64,000 bases of DNA from the IMG/VR virus record IMGVR_UViG_3300032327_000792; one strand, given 5' to 3'. This stretch comes from a virus. Taxonomy: Duplodnaviria > Caudoviricetes. Below the pieces are notes generated by a model, which was given only the letters and a program-made list of their open reading frames with translations, ran no database searches and was not told where the DNA came from. Below are positions 7,484-42,094 of this stretch, one piece after another. The position numbers and the translations under genes were made by a program. Position 1 is the stretch's first letter. Every line of letters begins with the position of its first letter.

Positions 7484-7514
7484 GCTGTATTTAGCGGTTT
7501 TGAATTTTAAGAGT

Positions 7515-15861: not shown

Positions 15862-15903
15862 AGTGTATTTATTGGATCTTTTGTTATAACATCTTAAAGA
15901 AAA

Positions 15904-24601: not shown

Positions 24602-24624
24602 AGTAGTCCTTTAACTACTACTAT

Positions 24625-24888
24625 TTAGTTTCGTCCCCAATTAACTCTACTCCACACACGTTCGTGACACCAATAAATGAATGGCTTTACAATCATTTCT
24701 GTGGCTCCTATGCCTAAGCTCATAATGAAATGTCCTGTGATAGCATAGCTGATGGCAATAGTGGTCAATGTACCGCAACAGCGATAACTGTAGGCTTTGA
24801 CAAGACTGCGTACAGCAGTCTCGCCGTTATTTAAGGCCCAGCTCTTGACGAATTTTTGTAGCACTGATTGAATGTATTGCTTCATCAA
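24625..24888 (-). CDS. DUF2061-like small membrane protein
   Basis: ETAVRSLVKAYSYR...YWCHERVWSRVNWG; the true start may be downstream of 24888. Confidence 0.7.
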   Translation of the reverse strand: MMKQYIQSVLQKFVKSWALNNGETAVRSLVKAYSYRCCGTLTTIAISYAITGHFIMSLGIGATEMIVKPFIYWCHERVWSRVNWGRN

Positions 24889-39001: not shown

Positions 39002-39220
39002 TTATCTTCTGCGAGTGATTCGTCCACGAGTTAGATCGTATGGACTGAATTCTATTTCTACTGTGTCACCCAACAATATTTTGATATTGTGTTGACGCAT
39101 TTTACCCGATATAACTCCAGTTACGGGTTGATCAAGATTTTCTATTTTGACTCTAAACATAGCATTGGGCAATACGTCAATTATTTGCCCATCCATCCGA
39201 AATCCTTCTTCTTTGGCCAT
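39002..39220 (-). CDS. infA: Translation initiation factor IF-1
   Basis: MAKEE...LPNAMFRV...[18 protein letters not shown]...[10 protein letters not shown]. Confidence 0.95.
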
Positions 39221-39714: not shown

Positions 39715-39743
39715 ATTATAGCAAAATAGGAGTTTTTGGTCAA
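39715..39743 (-). promoter_or_regulatory. Sigma70-type promoter
   Basis: TTGACC-17-TATAAT. Confidence 0.8.
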
Positions 39744-40066
39744 CCTCTGTCCAACAGATGTAGTTTGCTGATAACAGTAGCCCAGTGTTCTGCATCTGCA
39801 GGCGCTGGCACCCGTTTGCTCAACACAGGCCACAACTCACTGAGTTCGGCATTGAGCTCAATAAAGTGTTGTTGATCGTCGGGCACAGCATCCTCTGCGT
39901 AAATTGCATCCACAGGACACTCTGGCACACACACTGCACAATCAATACATTCTGTGGGATCAATCACTAAAAAATTTGGACCTGCTTTGAAGCAATCCAC
40001 AGGACACACATCCACACAGTCAGTGTGCTTGCACATGATACAGGATTCAGTTACTACATAAGTCAT
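39740..40066 (-). CDS. fdxA: 7Fe ferredoxin (FdxA type)
   Basis: [26 protein letters not shown]...[17 protein letters not shown]. Confidence 0.95.
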
Positions 40067-40093: not shown

Positions 40094-40396
40094 TTATTTG
40101 AACAAGATCATGGCCATTATCACAGCCTGAACAATAAAGCCTGTTCCAATTGTGATAATGTTTAGAGTATCTTTCATGACCACTGATCTGACAAACAGCA
40201 GGACCAATCCAGCCCACATAAACAGCACAATGTCCAAGTTGGGTACATTGTCACTGAGTCCTGTGAGCAAGGCCAACAAGGTAGGTATTGTGGCACAATG
40301 AATCAAAATCACTGCCAACCAGCCCAATGTATCTGCACCTACTTTTGGTAAATTTTCAGCTAACCAAGCATTAGCCCGTTCTTTGAATGAAATCAT
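40094..40396 (-). CDS. Small multi-pass membrane protein
   Basis: Three hydrophobic segments in 100 aa. Confidence 0.65.
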   Translation of the reverse strand: MISFKERANAWLAENLPKVGADTLGWLAVILIHCATIPTLLALLTGLSDNVPNLDIVLFMWAGLVLLFVRSVVMKDTLNIITIGTGFIVQAVIMAMILFK

Positions 40397-40974
40397 ATGC
40401 GTGCACCTTTTTCACTGTAAAATATATGTCTGCCAATTTTGTCGATCTTTGGCTTGCCCCATTGAGGATTTATGTAGTCTGCGTGATAGTACAGAGCTTT
40501 CTTCATTGAGGGTAAACGAAATCCTTCCATCATGACTTTTTTGGCCACTTCCTCTGACTCACGCCATAAAGCCTGATGTATAGGACGGACTCTGTGAGTA
40601 CCTTCACAATACCATGAAAATTGACAAACTACTCGGTCGTAAAATACATTCTTTTGATAAACCACACCGCATACATCATTGGCAAAACGCCCGTCTGCTA
40701 CGCGATTCATGGTTACCTGTGCCACTGCTACTTTGCCTTCAAACGGCTCACTAGCGGCTTCCCAGTAAATGTTCTGGGTCATACATTTCAACTGCCGTGT
40801 ACGGTCTTCTGCTGAAACAAATCCTTGACGCCATGCATCATTTTTGCTGGCCAATTCATCTAATTTGATAGTGGTTACTATGACCACTGCAAACATCACA
40901 CAGAAAAAACCAAAAGTTTTAACTGCCCATATTTTTAAATCTACTGCTGGTTGTTTACTTGACTTTGAAGTCAT
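40393..40974 (-). CDS. Cell wall hydrolase (SleB / Hydrolase_2 family) with N-terminal TM anchor
   Basis: NIYWEAASEPFEGKVAVAQVTMNRV, CGVVYQ, CQFSW, ALYYHADY, IGRHIFY. Confidence 0.9.
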   Translation of the reverse strand: MTSKSSKQPAVDLKIWAVKTFGFFCVMFAVVIVTTIKLDELASKNDAWRQGFVSAEDRTRQLKCMTQNIYWEAASEPFEGKVAVAQVTMNRVADGRFANDVCGVVYQKNVFYDRVVCQFSWYCEGTHRVRPIHQALWRESEEVAKKVMMEGFRLPSMKKALYYHADYINPQWGKPKIDKIGRHIFYSEKGARI

Positions 40975-40984
40975 GTCATTCTCC

Positions 40985-41320
40985 TTTGAACCATACTGGG
41001 CTCTTCAGCGGAGGTGCTCAGGATGAGCGCATTGACAATGAGAGATATAGATAGCGAGACTCGGTGGCCTTCTTTGGCATACTCTCTTGGACTGTGCTCT
41101 TTGTCCTAAATGCTACAAGCACAATCAATACTAGTTGTCAACGAAGAGACGTTCCGACGGTCTCTTTCGAAACAGCAATTAAAGTTTGGACAAACCCCAA
41201 CCACTGTACCTATGTTTACTTTTTTGCTCGGTATAAACAGCCGAGGTGCTGTGGTTCTAAGATTGTGATCTTCTGCTGTATCCTAAAGATCAGCTAGATT
41301 GTTTTTACCACATGCACAAA
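40985..41320 (-). ncRNA. Candidate long structured 5' leader / ncRNA upstream of the cell wall hydrolase
   Basis: About 340 nt with no convincing ORF and at least five hairpins; TAAGTA (41321-41326) and sigma70 (41412-41440) promoter motifs upstream. Confidence 0.4.
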
Positions 41321-41411
41321 TACTTAGTACCCACTGCACTCTTGAGCTAAAAATCGCTCTTTTTCTACTACTTTTTGCCATTATATAGGTGTTTAACGAC
41401 AATATACTGCT

Positions 41412-41440
41412 ATTATACACTAAACACCTATAATGGTCAA
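41412..41440 (-). promoter_or_regulatory. Sigma70-type promoter
   Basis: TTGACC-17-TATAAT. Confidence 0.75.
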
Positions 41441-41441
41441 T

Positions 41442-41825
41442 CTATTTGGCTATAGCATTCCAGGTTTTCATCTTGGCTTCAATATCGGCTTCCAATGCTC
41501 GATATTGATCACCCAATGCTCGAAGTTCTGCCCATTCTAATTCTAACGCTGAATTTGGTTTCAAAATGTTTAGACGTTGCTCAATGGCGTTGATCATGCC
41601 CATCAAACTTTTGCCGTTGACTTCGATATCAGCATTATCGCCCTCAAGTTTGATCTTGCCCGATGTTCCAGTATTCCAACCAGTATTTAGAGTAACGGTA
41701 TTGCTACTGGTGTCGGTCCACGGAACTGAAATACCAGTGGCTCCGTTGAATGCGTAAGGACCGCCAGTACTACTGACAGTTATAGTATCAGTGACACTGG
41801 CAGTTGGGTTGAGCACCACTGACAT
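41442..41825 (-). CDS. Hypothetical protein
   Basis: 127-aa ORF; low-complexity Thr/Gly N-half, coiled-coil C-half. Confidence 0.65.
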   Translation of the reverse strand: MSVVLNPTASVTDTITVSSTGGPYAFNGATGISVPWTDTSSNTVTLNTGWNTGTSGKIKLEGDNADIEVNGKSLMGMINAIEQRLNILKPNSALELEWAELRALGDQYRALEADIEAKMKTWNAIAK

Positions 41826-41826
41826 A

Positions 41827-42018
41827 TTACTTGGCGACAGTCAATGCTTCTTTTTCTGCTGTGATTTCTTTGCGACGCTCTTTGATTGCTTTTGACATTT
41901 CTTGTAGAGCTTTTCTAGCACGGGCCGCTGCGGCTTTTACACCTTTGCCTGTGAACTTTTCGTTCTCAGAAATGTATGTTTCGAATGCTGTTTTGATTGC
42001 GTCATGATTTTGTGACAT
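41827..42018 (-). CDS. Histone H1-like Hc1-family small basic protein
   Basis: EKFTGKGVKAAAARARKALQEMSKAIKERRKEI resembles the Hc1-family KGNKAAGTRARK motif. Confidence 0.7.
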   Translation of the reverse strand: MSQNHDAIKTAFETYISENEKFTGKGVKAAAARARKALQEMSKAIKERRKEITAEKEALTVAK

Positions 42019-42094
42019 GTTGTTTCCTTTTCTAATGTGTGTGTCTATTTAGACACTTTACTAGTATACAGGAAAATTTCTGCGTGTCAACGAT

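Follow-up and report, generated by a model that had tools for sequence, protein, structure and literature searches.

The locus described here raises the question of what occupies a long gap directly in front of a phage endolysin gene. The window, that is, the whole stretch of DNA that was analysed (64,000 nt; IMG/VR virus record IMGVR_UViG_3300032327_000792; Duplodnaviria, Caudoviricetes), carries nearly all of its genes on the minus strand. Two minus-strand neighbours, a SleB-like gene and the 127-aa gene upstream of it, are separated by 467 nt. This gap contains no ORF longer than 45 aa, and none of the short ORFs inside it is conserved. A preliminary description, made without database searches, had claimed an ORF-free, multi-hairpin leader of about 340 nt before a SleB hydrolase gene, and had suggested either a cis-regulator or a free-standing non-coding RNA (ncRNA). 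The first claim held, since the fold is conserved and the only ORFs are short and unconserved; as to the second, a structured RNA is supported, and action in cis is favoured but unproven. What the comparative analysis reveals in the gap is a large, conserved RNA fold, encoded on the coding strand and strictly tied to SleB.

The endolysin locus

The genes and signals bordering the gap are as follows.

41442–41825, minus strand: gene of 127 aa, function unassigned, the upstream flank of the gap
40981–40986, minus strand: Shine–Dalgarno sequence (SD) AAGGAG, followed by the endolysin ATG at 40972–40974
40393–40974, minus strand: gene of the SleB-type (Hydrolase_2) endolysin, 193 aa (Pfam PF07486, E 1.5e-24)
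40094–40396, minus strand: membrane protein gene, 100 aa, with a 4-nt overlap with the SleB stop codon

The SleB-like protein has an N-terminal hydrophobic stretch of about 22 residues which, by inspection, resembles the signal anchor of SAR proteins, and homologues from phages carry the annotation endolysin or SAR endolysin. The gene of the 100-aa membrane protein comes directly after SleB in most relatives. This protein has no Pfam or PHROG match; it is possibly a holin or pinholin, the partner of a SAR-type endolysin.

Gene order in the clade runs from an Hc1-like gene through the 127-aa homologue, a variable insert, the RNA, SleB, the 100-aa membrane protein gene and a 140-aa gene to IF-1 and SOD. 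The lysis module of the window is flanked on the minus strand (39002–39220, 39740–40066 and 41827–42018) by genes of an IF-1-like protein, a DUF3470-type ferredoxin and an Hc1-like histone H1 protein of the chlamydial type (Pfam PF07432, E 1.9e-13). The IF-1-like assignment was made by ORF inspection, as this protein was outside the scanned set. Among GenBank phages, neither DNA similar to the window gap nor a match to the 127-aa protein was found.

Distribution of the RNA and its linkage to SleB

A SleB protein search of IMG/VR yielded a starting set of the 80 closest loci, many of them located on contigs of 100–355 kb. The gap sequence was matched upstream of SleB in five of these loci, and the first alignment displayed invariant blocks and compensatory stems. 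Further members were collected from IMG/VR and JGI/ENA metagenomes with pattern scans derived from the invariant blocks, ignoring the downstream gene. The family numbers 36 loci from uncultured phages or metagenomes. They have 31 distinct core sequences and fall into ten sequence subgroups (A–J); the window's own copy belongs to subgroup A.

A SleB-family gene starts right after the RNA in 36 of the 36 loci, 29 of which came from RNA patterns blind to the gene. Five contigs of 98–225 kb contain one RNA copy apiece, at the SleB locus. No gene or terminator lies between the RNA and the SD in any of the 36 loci, and the variable inserts (genes of about 470 or 260 aa) lie without exception on the upstream side of the RNA and never separate it from the SD. 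In two loci (L116:726–1410 and L278:936–1431) the RNA, which stays close to that of subgroup D, precedes a divergent SleB-family hydrolase with 33–47% identity, in which a cleavable-looking signal peptide replaces the SAR-like anchor. Subgroups H and I are reduced: the 5′ half is lost and the SD-proximal half is kept. Only seven of the 80 closest SleB loci possess the RNA and 73 do not, so it is not required for SleB expression as such.

No Rfam 15 family matched anywhere in the window at the gathering threshold. Relaxing the limit to an E value of 10 for positions 40700–41700 gave only four chance-level matches (E 1.8–5.5, far under threshold), and a search over the element in L016, L228, L086 and L050 gave none. 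Scanning 185,579 bacterial and archaeal species, each represented by one genome, for the pattern returned 45 matches, none of them a family member, and no description of the RNA was found in the literature searched. The RNA is an orphan structured family, absent from Rfam and seen only in phage sequences.

Promoter-like motifs and the 5′ boundary

Two promoter-like motifs precede the conserved region, and a third type of motif is spread over the window.

41412–41440, minus strand: sigma70-like promoter TTGACC-17-TATAAT (consensus scan, 11/12 matches; a motif match only)
41321–41326, minus strand: promoter-like motif TAAGTA, at the 5′ edge of conservation
7495–7500, 15870–15880, 24615–24625 and 42045–42055, minus strand: examples of the TAAATA motif

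The sigma70-like promoter is placed just past the stop codon of the 127-aa gene, and a −10-like TATAAT is present in relatives too. Its −10 is overlapped by an inverted repeat with arms of about 16–18 bp (41375–41432; CCATTATAGGTGTTTA...TAAACACCTATATAATGG, minus strand). The repeat lacks a U-run and could be either an operator-like palindrome or the terminator of the upstream unit.

TAAGTA occurs in every family member with its 5′ end retained. Transcription probably starts 7–10 nt downstream of it, although this is inferred from sequence alone. The same motif stands 8 nt before a permuted tmRNA gene in L067, and TAAATA stands 11 nt before the tmRNA in L343; this position ahead of tmRNA genes supports TAAGTA as a promoter element, as an argument from motifs only. 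Further copies of TAAGTA precede other genes in intergenic regions of the window (42358, 27566, 53028+, 62571+). TAAATA, one base different from TAAGTA, recurs as CTAAATAC/G or GTAAATA 5–30 nt upstream of start codons, presumably those of late or structural genes. Similar to TATAAATA, the late promoter of T4, it looks from its sequence like the late promoter of the structural genes. A k-mer search for promoter motifs gave no clear result. No intrinsic terminator was found between the RNA and SleB.

Fold of the 5′ half

The RNA fold combines an H-type pseudoknot, a loop–loop helix between P3 and P5, a pseudoknot involving the P4 loop, a 9-bp long-range helix and the hairpins P7 and P8. The elements of the 5′ half, in the order of transcription, are given below.

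41247–41312, minus strand: optional 5′ domain, with P1 (UGUGG/CCACA) around hairpin a (41275–41294) and hairpin b (41259–41272)
41214–41245, minus strand: PK1, the H-type pseudoknot; stem 1 CUCGG (41241–41245)/CCGAG (41227–41231), stem 2 GUUUAU (41233–41238)/GUAAAC (41214–41219)
41173–41206, minus strand: long hairpin P3 with the apex UUUGUCCAAA (GUCC at 41188–41191); the outer and inner stems covary
41144–41166, minus strand: hairpin P4, AAGAGAC/GUCUCUU, with the loop CGUCGGAAC (41151–41159)
41090–41126, minus strand: P5, GAUUGUGCU/AGCACAGUC, with a loop containing GGACAAA (41100–41106)

P1 covaries (UA/CG, AU/GC, AU/UA), and the optional 5′ domain as a whole is missing in subgroups D and H and in L007 and L132. 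A homologous domain forms the entire SleB leader in L024 (3891–4000) and also in L025 and L027, where TAAGTA is followed by one long hairpin domain only (GGGGGCAGA...UCUGCCCC). From these leaders, the 5′ domain would seem to be a module in its own right, belonging to messages driven by TAAGTA.

In PK1 the stem 1 loop has its pairing partner about 10 nt downstream of this stem, and an A-rich linker runs between the stems. Stem 1 has double changes at all four of its four pairs, with 99% of cells paired. In all subgroups the two strands of stem 2, at homologous positions, can pair although their sequences differ (GUUUAU/GUAAAC, GACCUG/CAGGUU, GCCUG/CAGGU, GGCUUG/UAAGUC, GCUGC/GCAGC, UACCUUGU/ACAAGUA, GUCCGU/ACGGAC). 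Because the stem sequences of subgroups B, C and D are related, a comparison of stem 2 energies with those of shuffles and cross-group pairings did not settle the matter, and the case for this stem therefore rests on the position-by-position tabulation. Subgroups A, B, D and F share an invariant P3 apex. The UCGG of the P4 loop is kept in all subgroups, and the P4 stem covaries in E, G, H, I and J and in L278. Double changes in P5 affect nine of ten pairs in the 5′-half model and seven of eight in the 3′-half model.

Fold of the 3′ half and the ribosome-binding site

The 3′ half continues from the long-range helix to the SD.

41135–41143, minus strand: 5′ strand of the long-range helix, CGUUGACAA; the helix encloses P5, P5a and P6
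41030–41038, minus strand: 3′ strand of the long-range helix, UUGUCAAUG, pairing with CGUUGACAA; family form UUGUCAAYG
41040–41086, minus strand: P5a, GAGAG-UAU (41079–41086)/AUA-U-CUCUC (41040–41048), enclosing P6 and the partner strand of PK2
41067–41078, minus strand: P6, GCC-AAAGAA-GGC, nearly invariant
41016–41028, minus strand: hairpin P7, GCUCA-UCC-UGAGC, with double changes at four of five pairs
41002–41013, minus strand: conserved single-stranded segment CUCCGCUGAAGA, in which CCG is universal and CUCC is able to pair with the SD GGAG
40988–41003, minus strand: hairpin P8, GAGCC-CAGUAU-GGUUC, ending in the window 1 nt before AAGGAG, with double changes at five of five pairs

The 9-bp long-range helix is paired in 93% of cells (29 distinct sequences) and is predicted by the MFE fold too. 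Its changes are only one-sided (G-C versus G.U, 14 to 14), so covariation speaks neither for nor against it. The strands of P5a, read by eye, differ from subgroup to subgroup yet remain complementary (CAGU/ACUG, GAG/CUC, AGUU/AACU, CAGGA/UCCUG, GAGUAU/AUGCUC, GAGUA/UACUC, AGAG-UAG/CUA-CUCU). P7 takes the forms GCCCA/UGGGC, GUUCA/UGAAC and UGCCA/UGGUA, and P8 the forms GUGUA/UACAC, CGGU/ACCG, AGCC/GGCU and AACCA/UGGUU. The end of P8 lies 3–9 nt before the SD in all subgroups possessing this hairpin.

Masking of the SD is weak and not universal. In the MFE fold of subgroup A, CUCC/GGAG pairing forms around P8 and the unpaired probability of the SD is about 0.25. Pairing of CUCC or UUCC with the SD, flanking P8, amounts to 4 bp in A, B and L086 and to a 10-bp helix in E. 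A universal anti-SD (YUCC with GGAG) was rejected, since subgroups C, I and J have only 2–3 bp; predicted SD accessibility among members ranges from 0.21 to 0.92. No conserved, covarying, mutually exclusive helices, as would be expected of a switch, were found among family members. Of the two candidate pairings, one joins the segment 3′ of P6 to the P4 loop and the upper part of the P4 stem, the other CUCC to the SD; neither shows conserved, covarying exclusivity.

Tertiary pairings

Two tertiary pairings connect the hairpins. Both were tabulated by eye from tool output, without formal statistics.

41100–41106 with 41188–41194, minus strand: K1, a loop–loop helix between GGACAAA of the P5 loop and UUUGUCC of the P3 apex, 7 bp in subgroup A
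41061–41064, minus strand: PK2, the second pseudoknot, in which CCGA just 3′ of P6 pairs with UCGG of the P4 loop

Elsewhere K1 reads UGUCC/GGACA in B and D, UGUCC/GGACG in F (with U.G) and CGUCCA/UGGACG in G (with C-G). In subgroup C it is UUCUA/UAGAA, both sides having changed at two positions, with the register aligned by eye. Loss of the P3 apex motif goes hand in hand with loss of the P5-loop motif in the reduced subgroups H and I.

The 4-bp core of PK2 is nearly universal (L007 has CCGC). PK2 has no more than these 4 bp in C and in subgroup A, that of the window, and grows to 6–8 bp, with differing letters, in B, E, F, G, H, I and J and in L278 (CGUCGG/CCGAUG, GCUCGGGU/GCCCGAGC, UCUCGG/CCGAGG, GGCUUCGG/CCGAGGUC, AUCCUCGG/CCGAGGGU). 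A pairing of CGGA in the P4 loop with the conserved UCCG before P8 was also considered and rejected: there is no compensation where U becomes A, and the partner 3′ of P6 fits better. The RNA contains at least one pseudoknot and probably two.

Covariation, strand and coding potential

The 5′-half covariance model (R1) was built on 31 distinct aligned sequences (25 in an earlier version) and the 3′-half model (R2) on 29. MAFFT alignments put the pseudoknot of subgroups E and F and the long-range strand of subgroup B in the wrong place, and model-based alignments were used instead. Standard pairs make up 93.2% of cells in the 5′ half, compared with 35–47% when the 3′ partners are slid by 1–3 columns; 24 of 36 pairs have double (compensatory) changes, and the observed values were reached by none of 500 shuffles. 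The corresponding figures for the 3′ half are 91.0% of cells against 26–41%, with double changes at 16 of 30 pairs. The paired columns contain 108 G.U cells and 15 A.C cells, and this excess identifies the structured strand as the SleB strand. Single-sequence folding of the window leader is unremarkable (z = −1.65 sense, −2.23 antisense); the above-chance signal therefore stems from the comparison and not from the window sequence alone. The conserved fold, its strand and its strict linkage to SleB are shown by these data.

A rival explanation is that the region is a protein-coding gene or a decayed pseudogene. In its favour, an open frame extends across the element in subgroup B, including L050 and L007 (112–126 codons), and spans 95 codons in F; the window has only three stops in the matching frame, two of them TAG. 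Against it, most members have stops in every frame (3–9 in the other subgroups), substitutions in subgroup B are spread evenly over codon positions (25/26/21), and the changes in helices are compensatory. The predicted peptides have no family match and are, by inspection, of odd composition. The coding reading was rejected and we regard it as very improbable.

These results allow the remaining claims of the preliminary description to be assessed. Four of the five stems that it had listed held and covary, namely GCTCA/TGAGC (P7), TGTGCT/AGCACA (P5), AAGAGAC/GTCTCTT (P4) and CTCGG/CCGAG (stem 1 of PK1). The fifth, GATCTT/AAGATC, failed; it is not conserved, and relatives keep two adjacent hairpins closed by TGTGG/CCACA. 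Both motifs of the tandem sigma70 and TAAGTA promoters that it had named are present, their role as promoters being a motif match only. Two checks that it had suggested were run: Rfam covariance models gave no family match, and the regions upstream of SleB in the relatives that bear the RNA proved to be conserved in sequence and structure. A translated ORF explaining the region, which it had said would refute the leader, was not borne out, as there is no conserved frame.

tmRNA genes and other leaders of SleB

The absence of tmRNA hallmarks, also claimed beforehand, was confirmed: ARAGORN and Rfam are blank over the element, yet both pick up permuted tmRNAs in relatives. ARAGORN found no tRNA or tmRNA in the window and none in the element of the RNA-bearing loci. 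The Rfam tmRNA models match L067, L069 and L075, not the element.

In L067 (3555–3943) a circularly permuted tmRNA of the betaproteobacterial type lies immediately upstream of SleB, abutting the SD, with the tag ANDSRFALAA read by eye. It scores 116 bits with RF04321 and 84.7 bits with RF01850 and was missed by ARAGORN. In L069 (2521–2962) and L075 (1376–1786) a permuted tmRNA is situated about 1 kb upstream of SleB, the tags being ANDKKYALAA and ANDEQFALAA.

Derivation of the leader RNA from tmRNA was considered and rejected, as no tmRNA model matches over the element and the RNA-bearing contigs (G001, G004) carry a separate tmRNA elsewhere. The presence of that separate gene also means that the leader RNA is not a tmRNA substitute.

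Another conserved leader, of about 100 nt, is found in three loci that have SleB and no RNA (L003:3826–4010, L012:3824–4010 and L022:3777–3960). It follows a sigma70-like promoter (CTTGAC...TATATAAT) and consists of a long hairpin, UCCCCUGAGAAAAA...UUUUUCUCAG, and CUGAGGGGA before the SD. It may be a second, unrelated leader motif for SleB.

A proposed cis-acting leader and its rivals

The reading that we consider most likely, with moderate confidence, is that the RNA is a cis-acting structured 5′ leader controlling translation of the endolysin or stability of its mRNA. This function is inferred, without expression or probing data. Four observations favour it: adjacency to the SD in 36 of 36 loci, persistence of the RNA where the hydrolase has diverged or been exchanged, retention of the SD-proximal half in reduced variants, and the lack of any insertion between the RNA and SleB.

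According to the proposed mechanism, transcription would start a few bases past TAAGTA, cover about 335 nt before it reaches the SD of SleB and go on to the membrane protein gene. The RNA would fold compactly, with PK1, P3, P4, P5, K1, PK2 and the long-range helix over P5, P5a and P6, followed by P7 and P8, and this last hairpin would abut the ribosome-binding site. The folded body would then set ribosome initiation on the endolysin message and possibly the lifetime of the message. By responding to an unidentified ligand or protein, it may keep both the timing and the amount of a potentially lethal wall hydrolase correct. Transcription from TAAGTA, switching and the effect on translation are all inferred.

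The main rival is a free-standing, stable, trans-acting ncRNA (a ribozyme, decoy or scaffold) cut from a late transcript, with SleB merely co-transcribed. This remains a possibility. The fold is as ornate as those of large trans-acting RNAs, many nucleotides of loops and junctions are invariant, and L067 has a permuted tmRNA, itself trans-acting, in exactly this slot after TAAGTA. Because of this tmRNA, adjacency alone is no proof of action in cis, and action in trans is not excluded. Against the trans reading, the RNA occurs away from SleB in none of the 36 loci, whereas tmRNA adjoins SleB once and is about 1 kb off in two loci. Moreover, the SD-proximal half is the part that reduced variants keep, neither a terminator nor a recognisable processing site is present, and only 3–9 nt separate P8 from the SD in the subgroups that possess it.

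A constitutive mRNA element that senses nothing, and that guards the late lysis message from 5′-end-dependent decay or fixes a low level of translation, is a further and less plausible rival. It is consistent with the L024-type relatives, which have TAAGTA and the 5′ hairpin domain only, with the failure to find a switch-like alternative helix and with the weak masking of the SD. However, a protective hairpin needs no body of about 250 nt with pseudoknots and loops (UUUGUCC, UCGG, GGAC, CCG) that are invariant across ten subgroups, and subgroup H loses the 5′ part and keeps the rest.

A bolder version of the cis-acting leader would be a new class of riboswitch, or another ligand- or protein-sensing RNA, gating translation of a SAR-type endolysin. 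Of the generic criteria for a riboswitch, one is satisfied, namely a covariation-supported aptamer-like fold in a 5′ leader. In the absence of ligand-binding data this can only be put forward as a conjecture.

Comparison with known RNA systems

Control of a phage lysis gene by RNA structure has a precedent in T4, whose lysozyme gene e is kept from being translated early by an RNA hairpin that covers the ribosome-binding site (McPheeters et al. 1986, reviewed in PMC3014915); soc, 49 and I-TevI of T4 are also under the control of mRNA secondary structure (PMC3014915). The leader described here shares with gene e a lysis enzyme gene in a T4-like phage, RNA structure by the ribosome-binding site and upstream motifs of early- and late-promoter type. 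In T4, however, there is one simple hairpin with late promoters inside its 5′ strand, whereas the leader has a pseudoknotted body of about 335 nt, promoter-like motifs more than 300 nt upstream of the SD, and SD masking that is weak and not universal. A late promoter within an inhibitory helix, the trait of gene e, is absent, the promoter-like motifs being only at 41321–41326 and 41412–41440.

Riboswitches ahead of genes for cell-wall hydrolases, among them the c-di-AMP (ydaO/yuaA) riboswitch, are similar in that a peptidoglycan hydrolase gene is preceded by a large pseudoknotted leader with a conserved body and a more variable SD-proximal part. The c-di-AMP riboswitch differs in its helices and motifs, its model (RF00379) gives no match at E values up to 10, and the leader is phage-only. 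The T4 gene 32 operator likewise has an H-type pseudoknot near the 5′ end of the leader of a T4-type phage, but it is a small pseudoknot with unstructured RNA coated by gp32, while PK1 is one module of a far larger fold and is dispensable in subgroup H. In size, complexity, phage or freshwater origin and lack of a known function, the RNA is comparable to GOLLD, ROOL, HEARO and Polynucleobacter-1, the large orphan RNAs known from phages and metagenomes. None of their Rfam models matches it and, unlike them, it is tied to one gene at a fixed distance from the SD.

Possible significance for lysis control

The timing of lysis is a central trait of phage fitness and is normally credited to holins and to the timing of transcription. 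An RNA fold of riboswitch size, holding at least one pseudoknot and fixed at the endolysin start across a clade of abundant freshwater jumbo phages, would add an RNA layer to lysis control that far exceeds the single hairpin of T4 gene e. The comparative support is sufficient for direct biochemical work on the RNA. If it acts in trans instead, it would be a new large phage non-coding RNA of unknown function; if the bolder, sensing version of the cis-acting leader is true, a giant lytic phage would time the lysis of its host by a metabolic or infection-stage signal.
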